A stretch of DNA of 64,000 bases from Fibrobacterota bacterium (GTDB lineage Bacteria; Fibrobacterota; Fibrobacteria; UBA11236; JADFYW01), in contig JBHPJW010000006.1 of NCBI GenBank assembly GCA_042567505.1, forward strand, positions 1,828-65,827, given 5' to 3'. The notes below the pieces were generated by a model that saw only the letters and a program-made list of their open reading frames with translations, made no database searches and was not told the origin of the DNA. Position numbers and translations under genes: made by a program. This document shows positions 6,962 through 58,391 of the stretch, in pieces (positions within the stretch are counted from its first letter, which is position 1; every line of letters begins with the position of its first letter).

Positions 6962-7046
6962 CAGTAGTGGTCAGGAATCAGGAGTCAGATTGCATACCTG
7001 CCTCACTGACCCCTGAACCCTGGCAACTGACTCCTCAAACGCCTAA
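6962..7046 (+). repeat. ~85-nt CAGGAGTCAG-heptad intergenic element inside the peptide ABC transporter operon (between the ATPase genes)
   Basis: gtagtggtcaggaatcaggagtcagat...cactgacccctgaaccctggcaactgactcctcaaacgcctaagg; collinear with 39015-39095; reverse-complement copy at 14570-14603. Confidence 0.75.
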
Positions 7047-7052
7047 GGAATA

Positions 7053-8063
7053 ATGAAGACAGCCATGCAGACACTGGTAGAAGCAAAAAACCTGGTAAAG
7101 AAATTTTCTCTGGGAGACTCGGAATTCCTGGCTGTGGACGATGTCAGCCTGGAAATAAAACCGGGTAAGACCTACGGACTGGTGGGAGAAAGCGCTTGTG
7201 GTAAATCAACCGTGGCCCTTTCGCTTCTGGCACTGCAAACGGTTGATTCCGGGGAGGTCTGGTTCAACGGCAAGAATATACTGGCTCTGCCGAAACCACG
7301 GTTGAGAGAGCTCAGGCGTCATATCAGGTTGCTTTTTCAGAATCCCGAAGCAGTGCTAAACAGCGGCATGACCGTCAGCCAGGTTCTGTATGAGGAACTG
7401 GAAAAAGAAAAAGAAATGAGCAGGCAGCAAAAGCAGGAATTAATCTGGCAGACTATTAAGCAGGTCGGTCTGAACGAGGGACATCTGCTCAGGCATCCTC
7501 CGGGTTTAAGCACCGGTGAGAAGCAGAGGGCGGCGATTGCCAGGGCTATTATTACCCGGCCTAAATTCCTGGTATGTGATGAGCCTGTCGCAAGCCTGGA
7601 TATGTCACTGAAATCCAGTATCATAGAACTTTTAATGGACCTTCAGTACCAATTGGATTTGTCTTATCTGTATATTTCTCATAATCTGGGACTGGTGAGA
7701 AAGATGGCCCATAATATTGGGATAATGTACATGGGCAACCTGGTGGAAGAGGCTCCTGTGGAGTTTTTCACTGTACACAGGGTTCTGCACCCTTATTCTA
7801 AATTGTTACTGGCCTCCGTACCCAGCACATTTCCCGATGAGTTCCATGAGATTTTAAAAGATTACCCTGACGTGGAACCCAGCCGGTTCCAGGAGGGATG
7901 TCCTTTCCGTAATCGCTGTCCTTTCTATCTTTCCAATCCCATCAGGCCCTGTGAGACCAGGAACCCGCGCCTGGTGAACCATGGAGATAATAGAAAAGTG
8001 GCCTGTCATCAGGTCAAGAGCGCGGTGTACAAGGGGCTGTGGGGGTTGTCAACTGGTGTATAA
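7053..8063 (+). CDS. ABC transporter ATP-binding protein (OppF/DppF-like) with C-terminal oligopeptide-transporter extension
   Basis: Walker A GESACGKST; signature LSTGEKQR; Walker B LVCDEP; C-terminal Cys-containing tail as in OppF. Confidence 0.9.
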   Translation: MKTAMQTLVEAKNLVKKFSLGDSEFLAVDDVSLEIKPGKTYGLVGESACGKSTVALSLLALQTVDSGEVWFNGKNILALPKPRLRELRRHIRLLFQNPEAVLNSGMTVSQVLYEELEKEKEMSRQQKQELIWQTIKQVGLNEGHLLRHPPGLSTGEKQRAAIARAIITRPKFLVCDEPVASLDMSLKSSIIELLMDLQYQLDLSYLYISHNLGLVRKMAHNIGIMYMGNLVEEAPVEFFTVHRVLHPYSKLLLASVPSTFPDEFHEILKDYPDVEPSRFQEGCPFRNRCPFYLSNPIRPCETRNPRLVNHGDNRKVACHQVKSAVYKGLWGLSTGV

Positions 8064-8100
8064 TCCGCTTATCACTTATTAAGATATACTTGATATATCG

Positions 8101-8132
8101 GCGTACCAGCGGTACGCCGCTGGCATGCCGTT
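8101..8132. repeat. variant palindromic element (cggcgtacc-agc-ggtacgccg) after the second ABC ATPase gene
   Basis: cggcgtaccagcggtacgccgctggcatgccg. Confidence 0.55.
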
Positions 8133-8155: not shown

Positions 8156-8656
8156 TTAACTGAATTCCCTATCAAGTATGGAGTGGATGAATTTTTCCAG
8201 GCTGATGGGATAAAACCGGGGATGAGGGCACCAAATTACCCCGGTGTTTATTTTTTCCTGTCTCTCCAGTTCTTCCAGGACATTTTTCAGGATTTCTTTA
8301 TCACAGGCTTCAAAAATCTCAATGGTAAGGTTTCCTCCTTTAATGTTTTTGTTCTCCTGCGGTGCAATCTTAAAGGAAAAGGTTCTGCTGACAATGCTCT
8401 TGTCCATGAAGGGTTCCGGCTCTTCAAAAATCTCCTCGAATTTTTCATTATTCGGGTGGGGTGAAAAAACCAGTTTGGGGCTGACCGTGATTTCACCCTT
8501 TAATTTGACTGATCCGGAATCTTTGGCGGTATTTGGCCCTACGAGAATATAAGGAAGAATATGATATCCCTGTACAATGCCGGTTATGGGTTTTCTGGAG
8601 ATTTCCGTTGATTTAAAGATCGAATGGATAAATTCATTGTCTACATCATCATGCAT
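8156..8656 (-). CDS. hypothetical protein
   Basis: 166-aa ORF, no recognised motifs. Confidence 0.45.
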   Translation of the reverse strand: MHDDVDNEFIHSIFKSTEISRKPITGIVQGYHILPYILVGPNTAKDSGSVKLKGEITVSPKLVFSPHPNNEKFEEIFEEPEPFMDKSIVSRTFSFKIAPQENKNIKGGNLTIEIFEACDKEILKNVLEELERQEKINTGVIWCPHPRFYPISLEKFIHSILDREFS

Positions 8657-12431: not shown

Positions 12432-12491
12432 TCGGCGCGTCATTGGGTCATGAGAAGGTAAAATAATTCCAACCCATGACCTAATGACGCG
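12432..12491. terminator. 18-bp inverted repeat between convergent genes (candidate bidirectional terminator or protein binding site)
   Basis: gcgcgtcattgggtcatg ... catgacctaatgacgcgc. Confidence 0.4.
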
Positions 12492-12548
12492 CCCAACACC
12501 CCATGAAGGTGTTACAAGGAGGCGCTAATGACTAATGATTCATCTCAA

Positions 12549-13145: not shown

Positions 13146-13212
13146 TTACACCTCGATATTTATCATAAGGTAGTTTTTTTTAGATAGTGAGGTATAGATT
13201 ATGGATATATTC

Positions 13213-13255
13213 AGGTGTCAGGTGTCAGGTGTCAGGTGTCAGGTGTCAGGTGTGA
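13213..13255. repeat. tandem heptanucleotide repeat (CAGGTGT)x6
   Basis: caggtgtcaggtgtcaggtgtcaggtgtcaggtgtcaggtgtgagg read directly. Confidence 0.9.
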
Positions 13256-13447
13256 GGCTCTCGATCTTGTCATGCCGGACTTGATCCGGCATCTTTCCCA
13301 GGTAATCTTGGTAGTAATTTACCAAGGCAAGACGCTGGGTCTGTGCCCGGTGTGACAGGTGATGGCGACTATCTCTTTTCTCCTTACTCCCCACTCCTTA
13401 CTACCAGAGCCCAGTACTCCATCACTCTAGTATTCTCCAGAGTTACA

Positions 13448-14529: not shown

Positions 14530-14645
14530 TAAGGTTTCAGTTTTCAGGGGTCAGTTAGGTAAGTATCCGATCTGACTCCTGACTCCTGATTCCTGACCAC
14601 TACAGTCCTCTAACTTCTGACTCCTTATTTCTCACTCTTCTCAAA
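14530..14645 (-). repeat. inter-tRNA copy of the CAGGAGTCAG-heptad intergenic element
   Basis: atctgactcctgactcctgattcctgaccactac is the reverse complement of the 6965-6991 copy; further ctgactcc/ctcactc heptads. Confidence 0.7.
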
Positions 14646-18649: not shown

Positions 18650-21600
18650 CTATTCCAGCGTAAAGGCGTCCAGGTTGCCTCCGGCGGTGCCGAATATCAC
18701 CAGACCGGCATCCTCGCTTATCCAGGGACCGGCGTCAGCGTCGTCAGAAGCGTCGCTGTAGGGCCAATTGGTCATGGTTGCGGCGCTGGAGGCGTTGTCG
18801 TCTATGGCATAATATCGCCCTCCCTGCCGGCCGAAGTACACAACGGTGTCCCAGGGCAGGGGAGCTGCGTTTACGGTATCCAGTGCGTCATAAGCCCAGT
18901 CGACAGTGGCCGCTATGCCTGAGCCGTTGTCGGATACTTTCTTCACGTTGTTTTCCACAGCAACGTAGATGTCTCCGGTGTTGGCGGTGTCGTCGGAGGT
19001 CTTTCCCATAATAAAGGCCGGGCCGGTGTTGGCGGTACCCAGGTTCACGGAAGTGGGAGACCATTTAAACGACCAGGTGGAAATAGTGATGGCGTACAGG
19101 CTGGAGGTGGCGGGTGTCACATAAAGCGTGTTCCTGTCCACCAGCAGGGGCAGCTGAACGTCTGTGCCCATGTTGATACCGGCGCCGGTCTGGGTTCCGT
19201 CGTAATCATACTTGTAGACATATCCGCCCCCGCCCGTGGCCGTGGCGACATATATCTCATCATTTTTTACCACGAGGTCCGCGCTCAGGCTGACGTCGGC
19301 CAGGTTCACCGGCCATCCGCTCATGGTGGAATCATTAATGTAATTATACCTTGTTATGTAGTTTGTATAGGTAATAAAAAACGTGGAGTCGTCCGGGCTG
19401 GCATAGGGATTGCCCGCCGTGGCGTTGAGATCAAGGGGCGTGAAGACTTCGGAAGAGGAAGAAATATCATCCTGCCTGCCTATCACGTATTCTCCGGCTG
19501 AAGCGAAGATCTTGTATTTGCTTACGTCCGTGTCGTAGACATAAGTGGGCATGTTGCATGCCCCGTATGCCGAGGTGGAAAAAAACCATTTCTGCTGCCC
19601 GTCGCTCAAATTATAGCTGAAGAGCCTGTTAACGCCGGATCCTGTGCCTATATAAATCCGGTTCTCGGTAATGGCCCCGCCCTGCACAGGGCCCAGGCCT
19701 GTCTTGCTCCATGCTGCGGCCACCATATTCTTGGTGTAATTGTCTATGGAAGCAGTGGAGTCGCCGTTTCCGATGGCGTCGAAGGCCCAGATTTTGAAGT
19801 AATACAAGGTGTTTATACTCAGTCCGGTGATGGTGGTGGAGGTGGTGGCAGCTGACGTCAGGGCGCCGTCGTCGCCATCGTCCCATTCCGTGCCGGAGCT
19901 GTCCCGCGCCTCTGCCAGGGTGGTGCCGTACCAGATCTCATAGTGATCAAAGTTCCGGTCCGTGGCTGCGGTCCACCCCAGGGTAACCGTGGTGCCCGTG
20001 GAGTCCGATCCCGCCAGGGAGGCCAGCCCGGCCGGAATTTTGGTATCGATGGCAAAAGTATCGCTTTCGGTGGTGTCCCTATTGGATGAGCCGTCGGTGG
20101 CTATCACCCGGACCAGGTACACGGTATCTGTGTTGGGCAGGTCCGTGTCGACGTCCCAGAGGATGGTATCATTTCCCGTGGCCGAGGTGTCTATGCCCGT
20201 GCCTATGTCCCCGGAAGTGGTTTCCAGGCTGTCATTGCTGTCCCAGCTGCCGCCGTAGAGCTTGTACTCCACTTTTATGTCTACCGTGCCGTCATTGGCG
20301 TCATCAACCTCATACCCCACTCTCACGCTGTCTGGGTGGTATTGGGCGGCATTGACATAAGGCGCGTCATCCCATCCCGTCACCACTGGATCATTTGTGG
20401 CCAGGGTGGTGGTGTTTACGTCAGTATCCGTGTCCTCATTGCCCATGGAATCCAGAGCCCATATCTTAAAGTAATAGGTGGAGGAGGGAATGAGCGAAGT
20501 GATATTGGTGGTGTCGGTGGCCATGGTGGCCAGGGATGCGTCATTGTCCTGGTCCCATTCCAGGGCCGTTCCGGTGCGGCCCTGGACGTCCGACTGGCTG
20601 GTGCCATACCAAATTTCATAATGGGAAAAATGGGATTCGCTGCTGGTAACCGTCCAGGAAAGCCCCACGTCGGTGGCATTTGTGGCCCCAACTGTCAGGC
20701 CGGCCAGTCCCGAGGGGTCCACCAGGTCTATATCAAAGCTGCCGGAGACCGTGGTGTCTGTATTGCTGTCGTCGTCGATGCAGTGGACCCTGACGTTATA
20801 GGCGGCGTCTGTGGTACCGGGGATCAAATCAGTGTATACGTCCCACTGCAGGGTGTCATCTATGCTCGCTCCCGTAGAAATGGTATCGTAATCCCCGGAA
20901 AGCGTGGACGGGTTTGTCCAGGAACAGGAGCTCGCCAGGCAGTATTGCAGCGAACAGACGGCCGTGGTATCGTTGTCATCGCTTACCTCATAGCCCACCC
21001 GGACCGTGCCGGAGTCTATTTGCTCGGCGTCAACCTGGGCGGCCTGGTCCCAGCCCGTGACCGTGGGCGCCGGGTCATCCAGGGTGGTTGTGCTGTCCCC
21101 TGTTATCGTAGCTTCGTTATTCATGGCATCCACGGCCCAGATTTTAAAATGATACTTGGTGGAAGGGCTCAAACCGGTAACAATCATGCTGGTGGTGGCT
21201 ATGTCCTTCATGCCGTTGTTGTTGTCCCCGTCCCATTCCAGGGCTGATCCGTTGCGGTTTTCCACTTCGCTTTTAGAAGAACCGTACCAGATTTCATAGT
21301 GGTCGAAATGTCCTTCATCGGATAATGCCGTCCAGGAAAAACTCACTGAAGTGCTTAAAGGATCCACCACGGCAAAGTCGGCCAGCCCCACCGGAGATTT
21401 GGTGTCCAGGCCGAAGGCCGCGCTCTGCGCGGTGTCGGCCAGCCCGCCGTCACTGGCGATGACGCGCACGTAATAGGTGCCGTCTATGGCATCGCCCAGT
21501 TGGTCACGAACGCTCCATCTAATGGTACGATCGGCGTACTCATTGGTGGCGTCCACTCCGGCGCCTATGTTCCCGGCGGTATCGGTGGCGGCGGTCCAGG

Positions 21601-24370
21601 ACCCCCCGTCCGGCTTGTATTGCAGGGTCACGGTAACTGTGGCGTCGTACTGGTCATAGACCTCGTACTGGATGGTGGCGGAATCCGTCTCGTCTTGCGA
21701 AGCAGTCACGGTACTGGTCGCCCCCAGTCCCGTGACCTGGGGAGGATAAAGCACATAGGTCACCTCCACGTACGGAACGTTGGCCCCTTCGGAAGCGTGG
21801 AAATTCTTATAGGATTCGTTGGTCCCTTCGGCATTGGAGATGAACACCATGCCATAATTGGCGCTATCGCCCGAGTGCCAGTCCTTAAAGGTCTGGGTTA
21901 TGTCCCAGGTATACCAGCCGGTGTTTCCCACCGAGGCGCTCACCACAGAGGCTGATCGGTCATTTCCCTCGGATCCTACGCCGGCCGTGGTCCAGGTGTT
22001 TTCATCGGCGTATTCGGTCCAGTTGCTCATGTTGGCCTGGTCCTGGCCCGTTCCAGTTCCCTCATTCCAGTCCCTCAATACCCTGTAGAGAGTGATGGTC
22101 TGGTTGGTGGCGCTGCCCACCGACCCGCAATAGGACTTAAATTCAGCCAGGAGAACAGTGGCCCCGGTGGGCACATCGCTGAAATCATTCACCTTCACCA
22201 GGGAGCGCATAACGTAGCTGCCGCCCCCGCCGGAACCGACCTTGCCTGCCGTGGCCCCGCCCCGCGTGGCGTCATTGCCGTAATTATAACTGGTATTTAA
22301 GTTTTCTATCATATTGTCATCAAGGTCGGTGAGCTGGACCACTGAATCCGCGTCTGTTTCGGCCAGGGTGGTGACGGCCGTATCGTTGATAGCCGTTTCG
22401 TTGCCGTAATCATCCATGGCCCATACCTGGAAGTAGTATGTTCTTTCGGCCAGCAGGCCGGTGATGGTGGTGGAAGTAGTGGCAGCGCTGGCAAGATTGC
22501 TGTCGTCCGGATCGTTGTCCCATTCCGCCGCGTTGCTGCGGTTCTGCACGCTGGTGGAATCTATGCCGTACCATACTTCATAATGATTGAAATTCCCGTC
22601 TGTGGCGGCGCTGGACCAGCTCAGGGCCACGGTGCTCATGGTGGTGTCGGTGGACGAGAGCGTGGCGGAAAAGGAGGGAACCTCGGTGTCTATGATGAAT
22701 TCCGCCGTAGCCGCCGTATCGATATTGCTGCCATCGTCCTCGGCCAGAATCCTGATGTAAGCAGTGGTGTCTGTTGAGCCGAACTGGGTGCGCACGTCCC
22801 AGTAGACAGAAAGGTCTTCCACCATGTCGACCGCGACTGAACCGGTGTCCCCGTCGGTATTGGCCTTGAAGTCGGCCCAGGCGGTCCAGGAGGCATCGTC
22901 CTTGAGTTTCATTTCCATGGTTACGGTGATGGCGGAATCGTCCTGGTCCCAGGCCTCGTATTTCACCTGTACGCTGTCGGTGTTTATCTGCACCGCCACC
23001 GGATCGACGATGGGGTCCCATCCCGTGATGAGCGGAACTACCGAGGTGAGGGTGTTGGCGCTGTCGGGATCCGTGGTCATTTCGTTGCCGGTTGAGTCTA
23101 TGGCCCATAACTTGAAATAATACTTGGTGTTGTATTCCAGCAGGATTACCTGGGCGCTGTCCGTGGAAATAGTGTTCATGACAGCGTAATCATCCGGGTC
23201 CCATACATACGCCGATACGTTCCTTTCTTCCACATTGGTGAGGTTGGTCCCGTACCAGATCTCATACTTGCTGAAATGGGCCTCGCTGGCCACGGTCCAT
23301 TCCAGGTCCACCGTAGAAAAACCCGAGTCCACCACAGTGAAATCCGCCAGGGAAACGGGGTCCCTGGTATCGATTACAAAGGAAGAGGTGCTTACCGTGT
23401 CCGCGTATCCCTCATCATCGGTGGCTATTGCCCTGACTATGTAGCTGCTGTCAATGCCGGACCCCAGCTGAGCATAGGCGTCCCATACAATGACCCGGTC
23501 CGAGGATGAGGAATTGGCTTCCACGCTGCCTATGTCCCCGGAGGTATTTGTGAGTGCAGTCCAGCCGCCGGCTCCGCCCACCTGGTACTGGGCCGTTATA
23601 GTCACATTATCATCGTCGCTGTCGCTGACTTCATAGGAAATATTTACCGTACTGGTGTCCTCCTGGTCTCCGGTGGCGTTGGCCCCGGAGCTGAGGCCGG
23701 TTATGACCGGCAGTACTCTATACCATACATCGAGGTATGGCTTGTTGGACCCGGCGTCCAGTGAGTTGAAATTCTTTCTCAGATCATCCGCTTCGGTGCC
23801 TTCCAGGATGAGCCCGTAATTAGTTAAATCGCCGTCAACCCAATCCTGAGCAGCTCCTGTCACCCGCCATTTGAACCAGGTGGAGGTGGCGTTTATCACC
23901 ACAGAGTCATAGGCCGAGGCCCCGCGGTCAGTCCCGGCCGTGGCGGCGCCGCTTGCATCCCAGGTGGAAACGTTATGTTTGTTTGAGTTCCAGCTGACCG
24001 CGCCGTCCTGTTCGGCGCCGTCTGCGCTGCCTTCCAGCCAGTCCTGCAGCAGGTGGTATACCCAGATTGATTCAGGGCTGGCCACATCTTCGCCTGAGCA
24101 ATACAGTGCCAGGTCAGCACTGTCTATGACGGCATCGCTGGGCAGGGTGTCGTCTATGGGGAAATTGATGACAATCCGGTAGGGTCCCCTATTCGCTAAA
24201 GCCTCCGTGGTTATGTATCCCAGATACAGGGTGGAGGAGCCCCCATAGTTGTCATCTGCGGATTTATCATTGATATGGGCGTCATTTCCAATGGTAAACT
24301 GCTTGTAAGTGGCCTGGCACAGGCTGCCTAATATGGCAATCATAAGCCCTGTTTTTAAAACCTTATGCAT
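18650..24370 (-). CDS. giant (1906 aa) secreted modular surface protein: two copies of a ~150-aa N-terminal module, at least 5 alternating Ig-like/FN3-like domain pairs, C-terminal PQQ-like beta-propeller
   Basis: Signal peptide. FN3-like repeats anchored by H(F/Y)xxYEIWYG...YYFK(I/L)WA(I/V)D. Second repeat type anchored by (V/I)TGWD...YEV.D.D...Y.VR(I/V)(I/H)A. Module with LY/VYxxLxDW(N/L)EG...NYG(L/M)...PY(L/V)(D/E)V occurs twice. C-terminal WxF/DGxxKW propeller blades. Long internal DNA direct repeats. Confidence 0.8.
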   Translation of the reverse strand: MHKVLKTGLMIAILGSLCQATYKQFTIGNDAHINDKSADDNYGGSSTLYLGYITTEALANRGPYRIVINFPIDDTLPSDAVIDSADLALYCSGEDVASPESIWVYHLLQDWLEGSADGAEQDGAVSWNSNKHNVSTWDASGAATAGTDRGASAYDSVVINATSTWFKWRVTGAAQDWVDGDLTNYGLILEGTEADDLRKNFNSLDAGSNKPYLDVWYRVLPVITGLSSGANATGDQEDTSTVNISYEVSDSDDDNVTITAQYQVGGAGGWTALTNTSGDIGSVEANSSSSDRVIVWDAYAQLGSGIDSSYIVRAIATDDEGYADTVSTSSFVIDTRDPVSLADFTVVDSGFSTVDLEWTVASEAHFSKYEIWYGTNLTNVEERNVSAYVWDPDDYAVMNTISTDSAQVILLEYNTKYYFKLWAIDSTGNEMTTDPDSANTLTSVVPLITGWDPIVDPVAVQINTDSVQVKYEAWDQDDSAITVTMEMKLKDDASWTAWADFKANTDGDTGSVAVDMVEDLSVYWDVRTQFGSTDTTAYIRILAEDDGSNIDTAATAEFIIDTEVPSFSATLSSTDTTMSTVALSWSSAATDGNFNHYEVWYGIDSTSVQNRSNAAEWDNDPDDSNLASAATTSTTITGLLAERTYYFQVWAMDDYGNETAINDTAVTTLAETDADSVVQLTDLDDNMIENLNTSYNYGNDATRGGATAGKVGSGGGGSYVMRSLVKVNDFSDVPTGATVLLAEFKSYCGSVGSATNQTITLYRVLRDWNEGTGTGQDQANMSNWTEYADENTWTTAGVGSEGNDRSASVVSASVGNTGWYTWDITQTFKDWHSGDSANYGMVFISNAEGTNESYKNFHASEGANVPYVEVTYVLYPPQVTGLGATSTVTASQDETDSATIQYEVYDQYDATVTVTLQYKPDGGSWTAATDTAGNIGAGVDATNEYADRTIRWSVRDQLGDAIDGTYYVRVIASDGGLADTAQSAAFGLDTKSPVGLADFAVVDPLSTSVSFSWTALSDEGHFDHYEIWYGSSKSEVENRNGSALEWDGDNNNGMKDIATTSMIVTGLSPSTKYHFKIWAVDAMNNEATITGDSTTTLDDPAPTVTGWDQAAQVDAEQIDSGTVRVGYEVSDDNDTTAVCSLQYCLASSCSWTNPSTLSGDYDTISTGASIDDTLQWDVYTDLIPGTTDAAYNVRVHCIDDDSNTDTTVSGSFDIDLVDPSGLAGLTVGATNATDVGLSWTVTSSESHFSHYEIWYGTSQSDVQGRTGTALEWDQDNDASLATMATDTTNITSLIPSSTYYFKIWALDSMGNEDTDTDVNTTTLATNDPVVTGWDDAPYVNAAQYHPDSVRVGYEVDDANDGTVDIKVEYKLYGGSWDSNDSLETTSGDIGTGIDTSATGNDTILWDVDTDLPNTDTVYLVRVIATDGSSNRDTTESDTFAIDTKIPAGLASLAGSDSTGTTVTLGWTAATDRNFDHYEIWYGTTLAEARDSSGTEWDDGDDGALTSAATTSTTITGLSINTLYYFKIWAFDAIGNGDSTASIDNYTKNMVAAAWSKTGLGPVQGGAITENRIYIGTGSGVNRLFSYNLSDGQQKWFFSTSAYGACNMPTYVYDTDVSKYKIFASAGEYVIGRQDDISSSSEVFTPLDLNATAGNPYASPDDSTFFITYTNYITRYNYINDSTMSGWPVNLADVSLSADLVVKNDEIYVATATGGGGYVYKYDYDGTQTGAGINMGTDVQLPLLVDRNTLYVTPATSSLYAITISTWSFKWSPTSVNLGTANTGPAFIMGKTSDDTANTGDIYVAVENNVKKVSDNGSGIAATVDWAYDALDTVNAAPLPWDTVVYFGRQGGRYYAIDDNASSAATMTNWPYSDASDDADAGPWISEDAGLVIFGTAGGNLDAFTLE

Positions 24371-24739: not shown

Positions 24740-25095
24740 AATGAGTCCGGTGATTGAAATTGAAGATGCCAAGCCGGTCCCGGCCTGAAGTCTCAGATAA
24801 GACAGCGGCCGGCTGTATATGAGCAAAGGTCCAGGCACCGGTTGGCAAAAAGTTATGGTTATAAAGATTTCGTACTGTGAGAAGGTTGAAGGCCAACCGG
24901 CGCCGGAGGCACAATGCAGATAAGACAGCGGCCGGCTGATTATCTGGGAAAAGCCGGACATCGGTTGGCAAAAAGATATGGTTATAAAAAGTTCGTACTG
25001 TGAGAAGGTTGAAGGCCAACCGGCACCCTAAGAACAATGCAGATAAGACAGCGGCCGGCTGTTTATGAGCAAAGGTCCGGACACCGGTTGGTTTT
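24740..25095. repeat. ~3.5 tandem copies of a 123-bp repeat (each with an internal 9-bp-stem hairpin ccggttggc...gccaaccgg) immediately upstream of the XRE gene
   Basis: Units begin cagataagacagcggccggctg at 24794, 24917 and 25040 (~85% identity); partial unit at 24740-24793; inverted copy of the core (agccggccgctgtc) at 25278-25291. Confidence 0.85.
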
Positions 25096-36450: not shown

Positions 36451-38910
36451 TTGCCGGTTTTTAAATTACTTTTCGCCTGCCTCTTGATTTGGTTTTCACT
36501 CGGCCATTCCCAAGAACTGTTTCAGTTGGAAACTGAAGACGTCCTGCCTGTGGACAGTCTTGGCCTGGATACGGATACAGTCGCGGCTGACTCGGGTATT
36601 GCGGGAGACACCATTTCCTGGTCCAGCCGGACATTTCACTATGACGCTCAAAAGGAGAAGTTTTCTCTTTATAATTCTGCGGTGCTCAACTACAAGGGGG
36701 CTAACCTCAGGGCGGACACCATATTTCTTGACAATAAGGCGCAGATGGTGGCGGCTTTCGGCCGTCCAGTGATAAAAGACCGGGACCAGCCGGAAATCAT
36801 AGGCTACCGGTTGAAATACAACCATTCCAGACAGGTAGGGGAAATCTATTACGGGACCACCAGGAGGGATAACCAGATGTTCAACGGCGTAGAGGTGAGA
36901 AGGCAGAAGACGGGGGAAATACACATTGCCCGGGGGGACTTTTCCACCTGCGATCACCTGGAGGACCAGCACTTTTATTTTTACTGCCGCCGCATGGTGC
37001 TTGAGCCCAACAAAAAAGTGATGGCCAGACCGGTGGTGCTGAATGTGAGCAATGTGCCGGTGGCGGTGGCTCCCATGCTGGTTATTCCGCTGGGAAAGGG
37101 GCGGCGCTCGGGTTTTACCCGCCCTAAGATCGGAGGGGACCAATCCCAGGGTTTCTATATGCGTGATCTGGGATATTACTGGAGCATGAATGACTACATG
37201 GACTTGCAGCTGTTCGGCGACCTGATTGAGGGGGAAAGGGGCACCTTTGATAAAACCAATGTCCGGGGACTGTATTACTACAACAAGCGGGACGTTTTAA
37301 GCGGGAACCTGGGAGGTAACGCATACATCAGTGAGTTTAATCCGGGGAACTCCGGATGGGAAATAAACTTTGCCCATGATCAGAACCTGACCCCGGACGG
37401 GGTGCAGAAGTTAAAGGGCGGCGGAAGGTTTGTCTCCAGCCGGAACGTTCTGGGTGAGGCCCTGAATGAGAAAGAGGCCGTTAATCAGACAGCCAACGCC
37501 CGCCTGGGATATACCAATACTCTGGACTGGAACAAGGCACGTCTGAACATAAGCGGGGTGCAGGACTATAATCTGACCACCGGACAGCAGACCAGGGAAC
37601 TTCCCAGGGCCAGTTTTGCCTTTGGGGCCCCGCTTTTTCCCATCGCTGAAAATCACTACTGGGATTTTGAATCAGCAGAGGCGGATGAACCCCCCTGGTT
37701 TAAGCAATTGTACCAGGAGATAAATTATTCCTATTCGGGTGATTTCAGCATATATACCGAAAAGAAACCCGCCTTGGGGGGGGCTGTGGCCGGAGACTCC
37801 AACACTTATGCGGGAGCCAAAAATGTTCTCGGCCTTTCGGCCAAATACCCCTTATTACAATACATAAACGTTGTTCCGACCATAAACAGTCAGCATTACT
37901 GGAACCTGCACTCTTCCATCGCCTCCGGCGGCGGGCCAAAAGCCGATTTTATGCCTTCCCAGGGCAGGATAGGCGACAATGTGTATAAGTTCAATATGGG
38001 GGTGTCGGCAAACACCAAGTTATACGGCATCGCCCAGCCGGACCTGGGGCGCTGGGAAAAAATCCGTCACGTGGTCTCTCCGACCATAGGATATACCTAT
38101 GCCCCTGAGATTGACACGAACAGGACTTTTGTGGCCCATCCCAAATTCAATACCGCGGCCTATCAACTTCGTTCTAAAAGAGTGAATTTGGGCCTGGGAA
38201 ATGATGTGGACATTAAAATCCAGTCCAGTGATACAGCTGCCGGTAAACCTGAGCCCAATGGCCTGAAGATCCTGGCAACCAGCTCAAACATAAGTTATGA
38301 TTTTGAAAAAGAGAAAAGGGACGGCAGGGGCTGGTCGGATATCTCGTCAACGGTCCGAACGGAAATACTTCAGAAACACATTCCCATCAGTGTCAGTATG
38401 ACCCACAGACCCTACAATGATTACGGCCCTGCCGGGCCGGAAAATCAGGTTGTGACGCCCATATTAACAGCTTACAGTTTCAACTGGAGGAAAGATGTCT
38501 CAATAAACGGGAAAATGAATTCCGGACTCTGGGAGCCCGCAAAAGATACTACAGATACTCCGGAATTCACGCGCCTTCCCTGGTCGGCTAAGGTGTTTTA
38601 CAGCTTTAATTACAGCGCCAAACGGGTGAGCGCCACAACTTTCCAGAAGACCTTGACGCATTCATTTTCCGGCAGCATGAATTTTAATCCCAGCCCAAAG
38701 TGGGAAATGTCTTATAACACGAACTATAATTTTACCGAAGGGGAATTTTCCAAGCATTCCTTTGAATTCAACCGGGTCCTGCACTGCTGGAAGATGAAGT
38801 TTTCCTGGACTCCGGTCGGACCCGCCTCAGGCTGGCAGTTCAATATATACGTGATAGACATTCCCGACATTAAGCTCGAGAGCGCGCATACCAATCTCAA
38901 GAAGAGATAG
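36451..38910 (+). CDS. large outer-membrane beta-barrel protein, LptD/OstA-like (LPS assembly) candidate
   Basis: Signal peptide; N-terminal OstA-like segment (YNSAVLNYKGANLRADTIFLDNKAQMVAAFGRPV); ~820 aa with aromatic-rich beta strands and terminal aromatic residue pattern. Confidence 0.5.
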   Translation: MPVFKLLFACLLIWFSLGHSQELFQLETEDVLPVDSLGLDTDTVAADSGIAGDTISWSSRTFHYDAQKEKFSLYNSAVLNYKGANLRADTIFLDNKAQMVAAFGRPVIKDRDQPEIIGYRLKYNHSRQVGEIYYGTTRRDNQMFNGVEVRRQKTGEIHIARGDFSTCDHLEDQHFYFYCRRMVLEPNKKVMARPVVLNVSNVPVAVAPMLVIPLGKGRRSGFTRPKIGGDQSQGFYMRDLGYYWSMNDYMDLQLFGDLIEGERGTFDKTNVRGLYYYNKRDVLSGNLGGNAYISEFNPGNSGWEINFAHDQNLTPDGVQKLKGGGRFVSSRNVLGEALNEKEAVNQTANARLGYTNTLDWNKARLNISGVQDYNLTTGQQTRELPRASFAFGAPLFPIAENHYWDFESAEADEPPWFKQLYQEINYSYSGDFSIYTEKKPALGGAVAGDSNTYAGAKNVLGLSAKYPLLQYINVVPTINSQHYWNLHSSIASGGGPKADFMPSQGRIGDNVYKFNMGVSANTKLYGIAQPDLGRWEKIRHVVSPTIGYTYAPEIDTNRTFVAHPKFNTAAYQLRSKRVNLGLGNDVDIKIQSSDTAAGKPEPNGLKILATSSNISYDFEKEKRDGRGWSDISSTVRTEILQKHIPISVSMTHRPYNDYGPAGPENQVVTPILTAYSFNWRKDVSINGKMNSGLWEPAKDTTDTPEFTRLPWSAKVFYSFNYSAKRVSATTFQKTLTHSFSGSMNFNPSPKWEMSYNTNYNFTEGEFSKHSFEFNRVLHCWKMKFSWTPVGPASGWQFNIYVIDIPDIKLESAHTNLKKR

Positions 38911-38912
38911 TA

Positions 38913-38937
38913 GCGGGGTGGCGTTGGCACGCCGAAA
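38913..38937. repeat. variant copy of the GGCGTGCC..GGCACGCC palindromic element
   Basis: gcggggtggcgttggcacgccgaaac directly after the LptD-like stop. Confidence 0.5.
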
Positions 38938-39014
38938 CAATCGAATATCCGATCATTCGAACAATCAAATGACGAAAGTAGAAAGAGATTCCAGAGGACA
39001 GAGGTCAGAGCAAC

Positions 39015-39095
39015 AGAGTGGTCAGGAGTCAGACAGTAATCGTACCAAACTGACCACTGACCCCAGATCACTGACTCCTCAATTACTCAAGGATA
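39015..39095 (+). repeat. copy of the ~85-nt CAGGAGTCAG-heptad intergenic element
   Basis: agtggtcaggagtcagac...aactgaccactgaccccagatcactgactcctcaattactcaagg is collinear with 6962-7046. Confidence 0.75.
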
Positions 39096-40578: not shown

Positions 40579-40608
40579 AGATTGTAGCGGCGTGCCGGCG
40601 GCACGCCG
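40579..40608. repeat. palindromic element GGCGTGCC-GGC-GGCACGCC (REP/terminator-like)
   Basis: tagcggcgtgccggcggcacgccgttataaa, 25 nt after the SBP stop. Confidence 0.7.
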
Positions 40609-41119
40609 TTATAAATATTTATTGAACAACAACTTACAAGACGTTTCCCAGGTCGATTGGCAAGCGTGGGTTCCTGATGAAAGAGCTGTCCTGTGTTTTG
40701 TGGAAGACGGAGACAGGGTCATGCTTATCCACAAAAAGACCGGATTGGGAGCGGGAAAGATTAATGCCCCGGGCGGCAGGATCAAACCCGGGGAATCAGC
40801 AGAGGCCGCAGCCATTCGGGAAACCATTGAAGAGACCGGGATAACCCCGTCTGAAACGAAGAAAGCAGGGGAGCTTTCATTTATCTTCACCAATGGATAT
40901 GCACTGCATGGCGAAGTCTTCTTTGCCAGCAGCTATTCTGGTTCGCTCATAACCACACCAGAGGCAGATCCCTTCTGGTGCGACAAGGATAAAATCCCCT
41001 ATGACAAAATGTGGGAAGACGACAGATACTGGCTGCCCCTGGCGCTGGAAGGTAAATACTTTCGCGGATTTTTCATCTTTGATGATGAGGTGATGTTGAG
41101 CCATAGGATTGAAGTGTGA
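40592..41119 (+). CDS. Nudix (MutT-family) hydrolase
   Basis: Nudix box GGRIKPGESAEAAAIRETIEETGI. Confidence 0.85.
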   Translation: MPAARRYKYLLNNNLQDVSQVDWQAWVPDERAVLCFVEDGDRVMLIHKKTGLGAGKINAPGGRIKPGESAEAAAIRETIEETGITPSETKKAGELSFIFTNGYALHGEVFFASSYSGSLITTPEADPFWCDKDKIPYDKMWEDDRYWLPLALEGKYFRGFFIFDDEVMLSHRIEV

Positions 41120-41461
41120 GGATTCGGTTCCATCATTACGAATCCGCTATCCCTTGATGAATCCGGCGATCGTAAAGACCGCAACCCTCAGGCAATCATT
41201 GAATCTCCTGTCACCAGGTATGATATCTTATTCGGCCGGTTAAAAATAGAAGTAGGAAAAGGCAGCCAATGGATTGATGTTGAGGTATTTGATATCAGAG
41301 GGAGCAGAGTCTCTGGCAGTGCGTTAAAGGAATACCGCGCAGGAATGCATTATGTTTCTCTGTTTAACGAATCGTTCCGGAGCGGTGTTTATTTATTGCA
41401 GGTTAATAATGTCACAGCAAATAAAAAATACAGAGAGAAAACCGCATATATAAAAAACTAA
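41120..41461 (+). pseudogene. relic T9SS C-terminal sorting domain, in frame immediately after the Nudix TGA stop
   Basis: Translation ...KIEVGKGSQWIDVEVFDIRGSRVSGSALKEYRAGMHYVSLFNESFRSGVYLLQVNNVTANKKYREKTAYIKN* fits the Por/T9SS CTD pattern (V.V.D..G..V...G.H......SGVY......T..K); no start codon or signal peptide of its own. Confidence 0.45.
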
Positions 41462-42255
41462 GCGAATGAGATAACTGTTCCCAAAACGCGCAAAGTGTTG
41501 CGCAGTCTGGCCCGCCACACACCTTCAGGATTCGGCTATTTTCCTGTATTACGGTGGCAATTACAACCTGCAATATGAAAATGATGTTTACCTGCCGGTG
41601 GACGGGACCAGAAGTACTTATTACGGGGGATATGGCGAAACCAAGGGAGAAAGGAAGCGGCACCAGGCAACACTGGGTGCCGGCATCGGAGGCGAAATAC
41701 ATTTCTGGATCCTGAACTGGTCCCTGATGATGGGCTATGCCGGCACGGGCAGAGTTACTGATTATACTTACTGGGGTGATGTTTACAATCCTATCAGTGA
41801 AGAACCCGAGTTCATGTTTACCCCTTCCATAGAAACTGCGCTGTACCTAAACTTCGGCGGGATATAATAATAGGTCCCGTGACAGGCGGGGGTGGGGAAT
41901 TGATTGGATTATTGTATTGAGGAAGTCAGAAGCAAGTAATTGTTTCGGCTGAAGGCCCATCAGGGATGACTTCTGAAGTCCTCATGAAAAAGGCTATGGG
42001 TTTTAAAAAAGAAAACGATGCAGTTCAGCGAAAATTGAATTTACTGAATCGATGATTTGCTGGGTTTTCCGCAATAATCTAATAAAAAGACAAATATTTT
42101 ACTTGAAATTCAGGTTTTTCTCAAAAAAGCAGAAATATCCCAAAATTCTAAAATTTGAATATTTATTGAGCAATACCTATAATTAGCGGTTCACTAAATC
42201 TCACCTGGTCCCGCATGGGAGGCTGGAAGCGGGTCCTGCAAAAAAAGGAGAAACC

Positions 42256-43446
42256 ATGAAAAAGGCTATACTCATATTTACATTTATTGCTTTGTATTTT
42301 TCCGGGTGTAATACAGCGCCTGTAAGTTCAGATAATAATAAACAGGCCCGGTAGCTGGCAAAAATATCAGACGCGGTCTGGGATACTGAAGATGGAAATC
42401 CTCATTTCTTTTTTCTGCCGCCCATTGTGCCGGCCCCGGCTCCCGAAGGGGTTTTTGATAATACGCTGTCTCCCGTGGTAGAAGTCTGCGAACTCGATGC
42501 GGCGGGCTGCGCCACCGTCGTCCAGTTTACCACCACGCCGGCGGAAGGGGCGGAATACGTGCGCCTGAGCGATGAAGACGAGTCTTATATAGTGAATTGG
42601 CACACAGACCTGTATGACCTGGATGCCTTGAACACCTATCGCATCAAGGTGATGGCCGAAGGACAGGAACTGGGTTACGCCGACGTTGATGTTGTCAACA
42701 GCGGCAAGGATCTCAGACATGTTGACACACAGCAATACATTGCGCTTAAGGACGGCAGGACCCTGCCCATTAAATTCAGAATCGAGCAAGGCGCTTTGCA
42801 GGTACCGGAACCGGGAGGATTGTTTGCCTATTATCCCTTTAATGGTAATGCAAATGATGAGAGTGGCAATGATAATAACGGGACTGTGCATGGTAACGCG
42901 GTATTGACTGCGGACCGGTTTGGAAATCCTAACAGCGCTTACCTGTTCGATGGCGTTGATGATTACATCGATTGCGGAAACGACGCCAGTATAAATATGA
43001 CCACAAATTTCACGGTTTCTGTGTGGGTGAAATTCCATACTTACGGAGATGATAAAACAATCCTTTCCAATGGTTCCGGCCCTTTCTATCAGAATTGGCA
43101 TATTCACAGGCATTCAACACCTTCGGACAAGCTCTATATAGGTATTTATGGGGATTTGCAGCTCAATTTCCTTCCCACAACTCAAACCGGAATCTGGTAT
43201 AATCTGGCATTCTCTATTGAGGATATTGATGGAACCAATGCCAAGGTAACCACTTACCTGAATGGCCAACAGGTCGCTTCAGTTACAGCCATGGCTCCCA
43301 CGGATGTATCCGGTGATAATTTGTATATCGGAAGGTTCACAACCTGTCAGTATCCCTATACCTATGCCTTTAACGGCGTTATTGATGACGTAAGTGTTTA
43401 TAATTACGTTCTAACCGATGCTGAAATAGCTGATTTGTCTAATTGA
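42256..43446 (+). pseudogene. LamG-like (concanavalin/laminin-G_3) lipoprotein gene interrupted by a single in-frame TAG at 42352-42354
   Basis: Lipoprotein signal MKKAILIFTFIALYFSGC (ATG 42256) is in frame with ORF 42427-43446, which has LamG_3 motifs LFAYYPFNGNANDESGNDNNGT...FDGVDDYIDCGN...FTVSVWVK; one amber codon separates them. Confidence 0.55.
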
Positions 43447-44854: not shown

Positions 44855-45155
44855 CCACTTTGGTAAGTGGTAAAAGGTAAGTGGTAAGTGGTCTCAAAAG
44901 TAGCTTTACTCTGTCATTCCCTGCCTCTCGATTTCACTCGAGATAAACTCCGGCAGGGAATCTTCTAGCTCCGATGTGGCCGAATTATTAAAACGCCTCA
45001 TCGGAAGTTGAGGATCTTCCGCTGGAGCCTGCCTTCCGCGAAGGCGGGAGGCGGAAGATGACACATGGTTGGGACTTTTGAGACAGTCTCTAGTAAAGGG
45101 TTCAGAATTTTTACCAAGATGGTTTTATACCACATCACTTACCACTTACCACTTA
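44855..45155. mobile_element. ~300-bp structured intergenic element with terminal inverted heptad repeats (MITE-like or structured ncRNA)
   Basis: Left end tggtaagtggtaaaaggtaagtggtaagtggtctcaaaagt; right end acttttgagac...cacttaccacttaccacttaccaa; internal hairpins (ttccctgcc/ggcagggaa; cttccgc/gcggaag). Confidence 0.5.
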
Positions 45156-45227
45156 CCAACCAGAACCCATTACTCCACCACTCCATCACTCCAAAGGATC
45201 ATCACCTAAAGGTTTGACAAAACAACC

Positions 45228-48131: not shown

Positions 48132-48182
48132 TTTGTCAGTAGGGGTTTGTTTTTTTTGGGACTATAAAAAGTAATAATAGTA

Positions 48183-48215
48183 GGGAGTAGGGAGAGGGGA
48201 GTTTGATTAATTATA
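48183..48215. repeat. heptad repeat array (GTAGGGAG-type), related to the array at 58345-58372
   Basis: agtagggagtagggagaggggagtt is the reverse complement of ctccctactccctactcc. Confidence 0.7.
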
Positions 48216-52510: not shown

Positions 52511-52639
52511 ATGGAAAAACATAAAACCCCCATTTTTTTACTCTGCTTGGCAATAATTAGGAATAAATTTATACTTTCGGTTCCCTGAAACGCCATTTTT
52601 TCCGAAATCAGATATTTAGATATTAGATTTTCATAGAAA

Positions 52640-52713
52640 AAGGGCATGTAGCTCAGTTGGTTAGAGCACCGCTCTGATAAGGCGGTGGTCGGAAGTTCAA
52701 ATCTTCCCATGCC
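52640..52713 (+). tRNA. tRNA-Ile (GAT)
   Basis: gggcatgtagctcagttggttagagcaccgctctgataaggcgg...; anticodon loop cTGATAa; CCA not encoded. Confidence 0.9.
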
Positions 52714-52723
52714 CAGGTTTCAG

Positions 52724-52762
52724 GAGTCAGTCAAATTGCCGTCTGACTCCTGGAGACGTGGG
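52724..52762. repeat. hairpin built from the CAGGAGTCAG motif between tRNA-Ile and tRNA-Ala
   Basis: caggagtcagtcaaattgccgtctgactcctgg. Confidence 0.7.
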
Positions 52763-52835
52763 GTTATAGCTCAGTTGGTAGAGCACCTGCTTTGCACGCA
52801 GGGGGTCAGGAGTTCGACTCTCCTTAACTCCACCA
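52760..52835 (+). tRNA. tRNA-Ala (TGC)
   Basis: ggggttatagctcagttggtagagcacctgctttgcacgcagg...; anticodon loop tTTGCAc; CCA encoded. Confidence 0.9.
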
Positions 52836-52858: not shown

Positions 52859-52888
52859 AGTAACGGCGTGCCGGCGGCACGCCGCTAC
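52859..52888. repeat. palindromic element GGCGTGCC-GGC-GGCACGCC
   Basis: taacggcgtgccggcggcacgccgctac directly after tRNA-Ala. Confidence 0.7.
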
Positions 52889-57454: not shown

Positions 57455-57484
57455 TTTGTAACGGCGTGCAGATAGCACGCCGTT
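57455..57484. repeat. variant palindromic element (aacggcgtgc-agat-agcacgccgtt) between the convergent nagB-side gene and rplQ
   Basis: gtaacggcgtgcagatagcacgccgttac. Confidence 0.65.
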
Positions 57485-58286
57485 ACTTTTCTTTTTTATC
57501 TGAATCCGCGTCCGCCTTTTCCTTAACCTGACCGTCAGTTTTTTCTTCGGTCTTCGCTGCTTTTTTAGGCTTGGTCTCTTCCTCTTTCGCAGTTTTTTCA
57601 TCGGATGTTTTGGCGGGTTTTGCTGCTTTCGCTTCAGTCTTTTTTGTCGAATCAGGTTTAGCCTTCGGTGCCTTTTCTTCTGACTCAATTGGGTCAGGAT
57701 TTTCCTCTGATTTAGCCTGAGGAGCCTTTTTAGAGGCTTTGGGTGTATCAGAAGCTTTTTGTTTTACTGTTTTTGCTTGCTCAGAGTCCGCCTGGCCGCT
57801 CTCTTCAGCCTGCTTATTCTCATCCATTATTTTGTCAGCTTTAGTTTTTTTGGCCACAGGCTTCTTTTTCGGCTTGGATTTCTTCTTCGGTCTGGGCGTG
57901 ATTTCATCCTCCACCAGTGATATGATTGCCATTTCAGCATTGTCACCATGACGCCTGGAAGAGACTTTCAATATTCGGGTATACCCACCTTTGCGGTTCT
58001 GGTACCGATCGCCAAGAATGTCAAAAAGCCCCTGAAGGACATTTTTGTCTTTTATAAAACGGGCAGCCTGTCTTCTGGCAGAGAGGTCGCCTTTTTTTCC
58101 GTAGGTGATAAGCCTGTCAACAAGGCCCCTGACCGCTTTAGCCTTGGGAAGAGTGGTTTTTACCTGCCGTTGCAACTGCTCATCAACCAATCCTTTTAAA
58201 AGTATTGAAGTGGCAAGATTATTGAGCATGGCCCTGCGATGGTTTCTGTGCCGGCCCAGCTTAGCTGTTTTTACTCCGTGTCTCAT
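57483..58286 (-). CDS. rplQ: 50S ribosomal protein L17 with ~140-aa K/A/E-rich C-terminal extension
   Basis: L17 core MRHGVKTAKLGRHRNHRRAMLNNLATSIL...GGYTRILKVSSRRHGDNAEMAIISLVE followed by histone-H1-like low-complexity tail. Confidence 0.9.
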   Translation of the reverse strand: MRHGVKTAKLGRHRNHRRAMLNNLATSILLKGLVDEQLQRQVKTTLPKAKAVRGLVDRLITYGKKGDLSARRQAARFIKDKNVLQGLFDILGDRYQNRKGGYTRILKVSSRRHGDNAEMAIISLVEDEITPRPKKKSKPKKKPVAKKTKADKIMDENKQAEESGQADSEQAKTVKQKASDTPKASKKAPQAKSEENPDPIESEEKAPKAKPDSTKKTEAKAAKPAKTSDEKTAKEEETKPKKAAKTEEKTDGQVKEKADADSDKKEK

Positions 58287-58289
58287 GAT

Positions 58290-58385
58290 ATTTTAGTGGG
58301 GAGTTATGAGTGGGGAGCGGGGAGTTTTAACACTCCCTACTCATAACTCCCTACTCCCTACTCCTTACTTATAATTCCTAACTCC
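58290..58385. repeat. hairpin and heptad-repeat element between rpoA and rplQ
   Basis: gtggggagttatgagtggggagcggggagtt ttaacactccctactcataactccctactccctactcc: 19-bp inverted repeat plus (CTCCCTA) heptads. Confidence 0.7.
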
Positions 58386-58391
58386 TTTAAA

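Follow-up and report, generated by a model that had tools for sequence, protein, structure and literature searches.

Short palindromes described as GTAG-tagged REPs (repetitive extragenic palindromes), which are 20–40 bp long, have stems of 6–13 bp and loops mostly of 2–3 nt, and are RAYT-associated (PMC3733652; PMC2817692), are believed to owe their mobility to Y1 transposases of the RAYT/TnpA-REP kind (Nunvar et al. 2010, PMC2817692; Di Nocera et al. 2013, PMC3733652). Their terminal GTAG is described as unpaired and, in some families, as degenerate (GTRG/GYAG); their G·T pairs are frequent and have been read as a sign of RNA function; they lie mainly between unidirectional and convergent ORFs, near 3′ ends; their termini often supply stop codons; and singletons predominate in some families (PMC3733652). 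They usually exceed 100 copies per genome, form frequent inverted dimers or BIME-like clusters, and accompany a RAYT gene flanked by repeats (a REPtron). In another deep lineage, the 18-nt intergenic palindrome aAACCGTTgaAACGGTTt of Caldithrix abyssi, which has a 7-bp stem and occurs in 38 exact copies per genome, has been likened to REPs by its authors (PMC5317091). Fibrobacterota and Fibrobacter are absent from the text of the REP survey, which covers eight phyla (PMC3733652), and from that of a survey of Y1 transposases (PMC6006769).

Here we describe a set of related GC-rich short palindromes, present in five copies (A–E), each just 3′ of a gene end, in a 64-kb stretch of Fibrobacterota DNA (64,000 nt, referred to throughout as the window). 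The window is ordinary bacterial chromosome of 47.6% GC that encodes an oligopeptide ABC transporter, ComEC, AspRS, a 1906-aa fn3 protein, a PilM/N/O/secretin cluster, LptD, a solute-binding protein, a NUDIX protein, RF1, PrmC, tRNA-Ile/tRNA-Ala, an AraC-family regulator, DUF4954 and an rplQ-rpoA-secY ribosomal block.

Results

Five related palindromes in the window

A first-pass annotation of this DNA had reported a palindrome that recurs after gene ends, and pattern searches establish that the recurrence is real. The pattern GGCGTRCC-N1-4-GGYACGCC has three exact matches in the window (8100, 40589 and 52865), vs. none in 100 shuffled sequences, and the looser pattern GGCGT-N3-14-ACGCC finds exactly the five known sites, vs. 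0.24 expected. A covariance model constructed from the five copies and scanned across the window with filters off recovered only copies A–E (E ≤ 2e-10), and the next match had E ~1. The same scan placed no copy in the 64-kb window inside coding sequence, a location that the annotation had named as speaking against its reading if frequent. The family accounts for 4 of the 11 perfect hairpins in the window that have at least 8 bp and short loops, including every GC-rich intergenic one. None of copies A–E matched an Rfam family, whether gathering or E-value thresholds were applied. All five copies are singletons, spaced by 1.6–31 kb, with no REP doublets, inverted dimers or BIME-like clusters in the window, and a density of ~80 copies per Mb is an extrapolation from five copies in one 64-kb window.

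The limits of all five copies are corrected here with respect to those first reported. The description of the family as one 8-bp stem with small variants holds exactly, as GGCGTGCC-GGC-GGCACGCC, for copies C and D only; the stem of copy E extends to 12 bp, copy B is degenerate and copy A is composite. Copy C (40584–40612, + strand) reads GTAG-CGGCGTGCC-GGC-GGCACGCCG-TTAT, followed by the tail AAATATTTATTG; it is 30 nt past the stop of the solute-binding protein gene (40554) and has the NUDIX gene downstream. It has a predicted folding energy of −29.9 kcal/mol on the + strand vs. −18.2 kcal/mol on the − strand, because the GTAG...TTAT G·U pairs form only on the + strand, and it has a covariance-model score of 53.9 bits and 15 pairs in a terminator scan. 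Copy D (52860–52888, − strand) reads, on the − strand, GTAG-CGGCGTGCC-GCC-GGCACGCCG-TTAC, then TAATATTTTT, and, on the + strand, GTAA-CGGCGTGCC-GGC-GGCACGCCG-CTAC; it is 70 nt past the stop of the AraC-family gene (52959, − strand) and 25 nt past tRNA-Ala (+ strand, end at 52835), and scores −24.9 kcal/mol on the − strand vs. −20.9 kcal/mol on the + strand, and 55.2 bits on the − strand.

Copy E (57458–57486, + strand), 56 nt past the stop of the DUF4954 gene (57401, + strand) and with rplQ (− strand) on its other side, reads GTAA-CGGCGTGC-AGATA-GCACGCCG-TTAC, then TTTTCTTTTTTA: that is, an 8-bp core with the loop AGATA, lengthened by GTAA/TTAC pairing to a perfect 12-bp stem. Its terminal TTAC contains the TAA stop of rplQ (− strand, 57483–57485), and it scores −23.7 kcal/mol on either strand, and 51.4 bits on the + strand vs. 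39.2 bits on the − strand. Copy B (38910–38934, + strand), the degenerate GTAG-CGGGGTGGC-GTT-GGCACGCCG with no T-rich tail, scores −14.3 kcal/mol and 44.4 bits on the + strand and −9.4 kcal/mol and 28.4 bits on the − strand. Its first G is the final base of the TAG stop (38908–38910) of the lptD-like gene (LptD_2 match), and its tag supplies a second, in-frame tandem stop after that gene (TAG-TAG). Copy A (8099–8130, no strand assigned) is the composite CGGCGTACCAGCGG-TACG-CCGCTGGCATGCCG, with a 14-bp stem, family-like outer arms, an apex that is a 16-nt self-paired insert, and an inner perfect palindrome, CGGCGTACC-AGC-GGTACGCCG (8099–8119); it has neither a GTAG tag nor a T-rich tail. It lies between an ABC ATPase gene (stop at 8063, + strand; 35-nt gap) and a 166-aa ORF (stop at 8156, − strand), and scores −27.7 kcal/mol on the + strand, −26.4 kcal/mol on the − strand, and 43.4 bits.

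An oriented unit with a conserved base and a variable apex

The copies give the consensus GTAR-CGGCGTGC(C)-loop-(G)GCACGCCG-YTAY, in units of 25–32 nt with stems of 8–14 bp and loops of 3–5 nt. The GC-rich stem is 8–9 bp long, or 12–13 bp where the 5′ tag pairs with a 3′ TTAY, and the predicted RNA hairpins have energies of −14 to −30 kcal/mol, from copy B to copy C, with z-scores down to −7 relative to shuffled sequences. The tag is GTAG in three of the five copies, B (+), C (+) and D (−), and GTAA in E. The 3′ TTAY pairs with the tag in C, D and E, and C and D have a G·T pair at one and the same place in the stem; B, C and D retain GTAG in spite of the Watson-Crick pair that GTAA would add. 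Basal stem and tag are conserved, and the apex is free to vary: GGC, AGATA or the insert of copy A.

The 21-nt cores of copies C and D, 12 kb apart, are identical on the + strand. Once reverse-complemented, the flanks of D agree with the C flanks in 26 of 40 bases (null mean 10.3; P ~3e-4), vs. 15 of 40 in the same orientation, and the repeat unit is therefore ~40–45 nt long and oriented. The unit has the form ATT-GTAG-stem-loop-stem-TTAY-WAATATTT, with orientations C (+), D (−) and E (+). Copy D contradicts the earlier assignment of all copies to + strand genes or to tRNA-Ala: D is inverted, its flanks match those of C only when reverse-complemented, and it runs in the direction of the AraC-family gene on the minus strand. 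The resemblance between copies fades ~10–15 nt beyond the hairpin, with no evident target-site duplication. Two mobile or arrayed types of element were considered and rejected: a MITE (100–400 bp), since the unit is too short and lacks both terminal inverted repeats and a target-site duplication, and a CRISPR, since the palindromes are not arrayed.

A covariation test with the five sequences gave one compensatory pair (G-C to A-T in copy A), which was equalled by 341 of 500 shuffles and is not significant; the five sequences give no statistical demonstration of selection on pairing. This result is compatible with a reading in which the palindrome is a duplex-DNA site for a dimeric sequence-specific protein, whether a nucleoid, insulator, termination-assisting or regulator protein, and in which conservation reflects protein recognition and not RNA folding or mobility. 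The stem sequence itself is conserved, 8–9 base pairs being the same across C, D and E, and known REPs bind gyrase, Pol I and IHF (PMC3733652, PMC5317091). However, the apex, at which length and sequence both vary, would not be expected of such a site, and the G·T positions and T-rich tails confer a gene-matched strand polarity for which a symmetric duplex site has no need.

Placement at gene ends

All five copies are intergenic, although the window is 86.5% coding in our gene map (P ~4.5e-5 for random placement). Copies A, D and E occupy three of the five convergent intergenic regions, which make up less than 10% of intergenic bases (P ~0.008); copies B and C are in tandem (+ +) regions, just past the upstream gene; and divergent regions contain no copy. 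With three of the five copies in convergent regions and none in divergent or promoter regions, the placement is the opposite of that of operators, and we consider a duplex-DNA protein site an unlikely explanation of the family. A transcription-factor operator was rejected on the same ground of placement, and parS and dif were rejected for their different sequence and for the location of the copies at 3′ ends.

The distance from each copy to the nearest upstream stop or tRNA end ranges from overlap to 56 nt, so that the earlier figure of about 50 nt was roughly right. The copy first placed at 57455 (copy E) does lie between convergent genes, as had been stated; it is not the sole case, since A and D do so too. 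The term REP-like element, which had been offered for the palindrome, is supported by a repeated extragenic palindrome that is at gene 3′ ends, carries GTAG in three of five copies and has no copy in coding sequence.

Terminator features

The anatomy of an intrinsic terminator, that is, a hairpin and a U-rich tract co-oriented with the upstream gene, fits copies C (+), D (−) and E (+) and fails for copies A and B. The T-rich tails are ATATTTATTG for C, TAATATTTTT on the minus strand for D and TTTTCTTTTTT after E, and A and B have none; the earlier statement that no copy has a U-tract was wrong for three of the five. In a terminator-consensus scan with a threshold of at least 5 T in the 8 nt after the hairpin, copy C ranks first in the interval 32–52 kb, and copies D (−) and E (+) rank first and second in the interval 50–64 kb; terminator-like sites overall are no more frequent than in shuffled sequence. 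By its anatomy, a 12-bp stem and then TTTTCTTTTTT, copy E is a textbook candidate intrinsic terminator. Copy D, which orientation would assign to the minus-strand AraC-family gene, is T-rich also on its + side, after tRNA-Ala, and could act both ways. The tails on C, D and E leave the suggested need for a protein-dependent terminator unsupported, and the suggested role as an insulator finds no support.

The fit of C, D and E to the terminator consensus raises the question whether the five sites are simply ordinary terminators, independently evolved, or local duplicates, alike by chance and forming no repeat family; similar GC-rich hairpins do arise by chance in many GC-rich genomes. Chance resemblance does not readily account, however, for five related copies in a window of 47.6% GC for which shuffles give none, or for identical 21-nt cores in C and D whose flanks are common in inverted orientation 12 kb apart. 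The other gene ends in the window also speak against it: their hairpins are of quite different types, many of them formed from inverted arrays of tandem heptamers. We judge independent origin very unlikely. Since the other gene ends carry different hairpins, more than one kind of hairpin derived from repeats seems to occupy the 3′ intergenic regions of this genome.

Paired uptake sequences are known to build terminators in Neisseria and the Pasteurellaceae, and in Neisseria ~55% of high-confidence terminators have the uptake sequence as hairpin arms (PMC1852404). By analogy with Neisseria and Pasteurellaceae, the half-site (~CGGCGTGCC) could be a DNA uptake sequence, inverted pairs of which have been co-opted as terminator hairpins, and the window does encode ComEC and a type IV pilus cluster with PilM/N/O and a secretin (PilQ-like). 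However, uptake sequences number at least 1,000 per genome, largely as single sites and with coding DNA included (PMC1852404), whereas the 64 kb contain a single half-site 8-mer outside the palindromes (28829), as many as chance would give. Pairs of uptake sequences also have neither the GTAG tag nor the oriented tail that belong to the conserved unit here. An uptake-sequence origin is therefore, in our estimation, highly improbable.

Other repeats and features of the window

A second class of intergenic repeat consists of tandem heptamers (CAGGAGT, CAGGTGT, CAGGGGT, ACTCCCT etc.), often in two inverted blocks that form long hairpins, at 6972–7036, 13211–13257, 13380–13402, 14545–14626, 38992–39080, 48179–48202, 52721–52752 and 58332–58386. 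Some of these sites separate tRNA-Asp from tRNA-Val, tRNA-Ile from tRNA-Ala, and the two ABC ATPase genes from each other, and one shares the intergenic region of copy B. With up to one mismatch, CAGGAGTCAG has 20 matches in the window vs. 2.95 expected. These arrays are, we presume, comparable to the STRR heptamer repeats of cyanobacteria, and a heptamer run (TGTTGTC) is present also in a distant relative (L152). Heptamer arrays also bound an element of ~300 bp (44861–45158) between convergent HD-domain and M28 peptidase genes: TGGTAAG ×4.6 (44861–44892) and, inverted relative to it, CACTTAC ×3.3 (45136–45158). The element contains two strong hairpins, of −28.1 kcal/mol at ~45015 (+ strand) and −23.2 kcal/mol on the minus strand; a MITE-like insert and a small structured RNA are both conceivable identities for it. 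A long palindrome of another kind, GCGCGTCATTGGGTCATG ... CATGACCTAATGACGCGC (12438–12497), is in the convergent region between a 3-keto-disaccharide hydrolase-like gene and a 198-aa ORF, and is a gene-end hairpin outside the family.

The genes tRNA-Ile(GAT) and tRNA-Ala(TGC), whose usual home is the 16S-23S spacer, stand alone downstream of prmC (52642–52835), and no rRNA match was found anywhere in the 64-kb window. A CAGGAGTCAG hairpin lies between the two tRNA genes, and a promoter-like TTGGCA-17-TATACT is at 52547–52575. Ribosomal protein L17 (57483–58286) has 267 aa, with the L17 domain at residues 20–125 and a C-terminal extension of ~140 aa. The 1906-aa ORF with multiple fn3 domains (18650–24370) lies in a locally GC-richer stretch, at 57% in the interval 20–24 kb vs. 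~47% elsewhere, and a 193-aa ORF just upstream of it contains a 123-bp unit tandemly repeated 2.4 times (24794–25091). The longest stretch of the window that seems to be non-coding (41120–42257), which measures ~1.1 kb and comes after the NUDIX gene, includes no long ORF that matches Pfam.

Searches in other genomes

Two proteins encoded in the window are 100% identical to MFC1584374.1 and MFC1584387.1, and their nearest homologues are 52–57% identical; there is thus no close sequenced relative for comparison. Short contigs that encode an identical IF-1 have DNA ~75% identical to that of the window and end before the position of copy E. Three homologue loci (L114, L115 and L152) contain no copy of the palindrome family and show little synteny; among them, only L152 keeps the pgl-like/DUF4954 gene pair. 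In a distant relative whose DUF4954 protein is 57% identical, the gene for that protein is followed by a GC-rich hairpin that is unrelated to the family and has a T-rich tail, which fits the possibility that the site is a terminator slot.

A scan of genome contigs with CGGCGTGCCNNNGGCACGCCG gave at least 113 loci, nearly all of which are chance matches in GC-rich genomes, a conserved coding stretch, or unrelated repeat families, and no Fibrobacterota locus is among the matches listed. The conserved coding stretch, among the matches listed, is common to many loci of Pseudomonas and other Proteobacteria, and we take it, by eye, to be RuvB-like. A scan of metagenome contigs with TARCGGCGTGCNNNNNGCACGCCG gave 36 loci, none related to the source genome and almost all single-copy; one of them (L120) has two, 141 nt apart. 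Among the matches listed, neither scan yielded a further copy of the Fibrobacterota family.

Hairpins with the same 8–9-bp stem do occur in unrelated lineages. In a Bdellovibrionales MAG of 40% GC (L034, 1801–1830), GTAGCGGCGTGCCACTGGCACGCCGTT is 44 nt past an ORF end; in metagenome Ga0180434, aaatGTAGCGGCGTGCGCCYCGCACGCCGTAG is common to three contigs (L116 ~5614, L123 ~11198 and L139 ~5912); and Halothiobacillus/Guyparkeria (L006/L013/L015/L017/L037/L041/L098/L107) and rumen Oscillospiraceae (L020/L023/L028/L049/L100/L112) have their own longer repeat families around CGGCGTGCC-NNN-GGCACGCCG. These same-stem hairpins are probably convergent REP-like families.

Discussion

We conclude that the five sites are likely to be copies of one dispersed REP-like repeat acting at the RNA level, either to terminate transcription intrinsically or, as a hairpin, to protect the 3′ end. 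The hairpin would be transcribed into the 3′ UTR and would stop RNA polymerase; in the copies with weak tails, A and B, it would block 3′-to-5′ exonucleases, and such a block would define and stabilise the 3′ end of the mRNA or tRNA precursor. Copies between convergent genes could serve both transcripts. More tentatively, the copies may have arisen by REP-type proliferation, possibly as single strands mobilised by a RAYT-like Y1 transposase whose gene would lie in another part of the genome (no Y1_Tnp/RAYT domain is present among the 50 window ORFs scanned), or through another copy-and-paste or gene-conversion route, and may have been retained where a terminator is useful.

A stronger version of this reading would make the repeat an oriented 'portable terminator' cassette, complete in itself with its tag, hairpin and U-rich tail, that proliferates in a deep-branching Fibrobacterota lineage with few other canonical terminators, that supplies most operon ends there jointly with the STRR-like heptamer-array hairpins, and that spreads perhaps RAYT-free, by an undescribed mechanism. 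We regard that version as unlikely.

If confirmed genome-wide, the dispersed REP-like repeat would extend GTAG-type REP-like repeats to Fibrobacterota. The palindrome marks operon ends in DNA in which consensus terminators are not enriched over shuffles, and so aids the annotation of operons and 3′ UTRs, and the oriented hairpin-plus-tail unit provides a case for asking whether terminators spread as mobile modules. The family opens no new class of biology: it looks like an element of a kind already known, with a new lineage as its host.

The Fibrobacterota copies resemble intrinsic terminators in that C, D and E each have a GC-rich hairpin and then a T-rich stretch, past a stop and co-oriented with the gene. 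They differ from intrinsic terminators in having a common stem sequence, which ordinary terminators do not have, in the absence of a tail from A and B, and in the tails of C and D, which are interrupted A/T-rich runs and not runs of 7–9 U. With DUS/USS inverted pairs (Kingsford et al. 2007, PMC1852404) they share the presence of the same sequence in both hairpin arms, together with competence-type genes in the window; unlike those pairs, they are accompanied by no excess of single half-sites, and the unit is a whole tagged hairpin and not a 9–12-mer. There is also a resemblance to the Caldithrix abyssi palindrome: both are short, conserved and intergenic, are enriched in convergent and avoid divergent regions, have strand polarity, and belong to deep lineages, whereas the Caldithrix palindrome is AT-richer, has another sequence and no GTAG tag, and has no reported terminator tail (PMC5317091).

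The differences from GTAG-tagged REPs are that the tag is paired with the 3′ TTAY, and not an unpaired overhang as published, that it is GTAA in E and absent in A, and that the 64-kb window contains no dimers or BIMEs and no RAYT. The likenesses are that the Fibrobacterota palindrome is GC-rich and short, has comparable stem and loop sizes and G·T pairs, and carries GTAG in three of five copies; that its copies are extragenic near 3′ ends (three convergent, two tandem), with termini that overlap stops (B and E); and that the copies are singletons, as in some GTAG REP families. Judged by these sequence features, the GTAG-tagged REP appears to be the closest known type of repeat.
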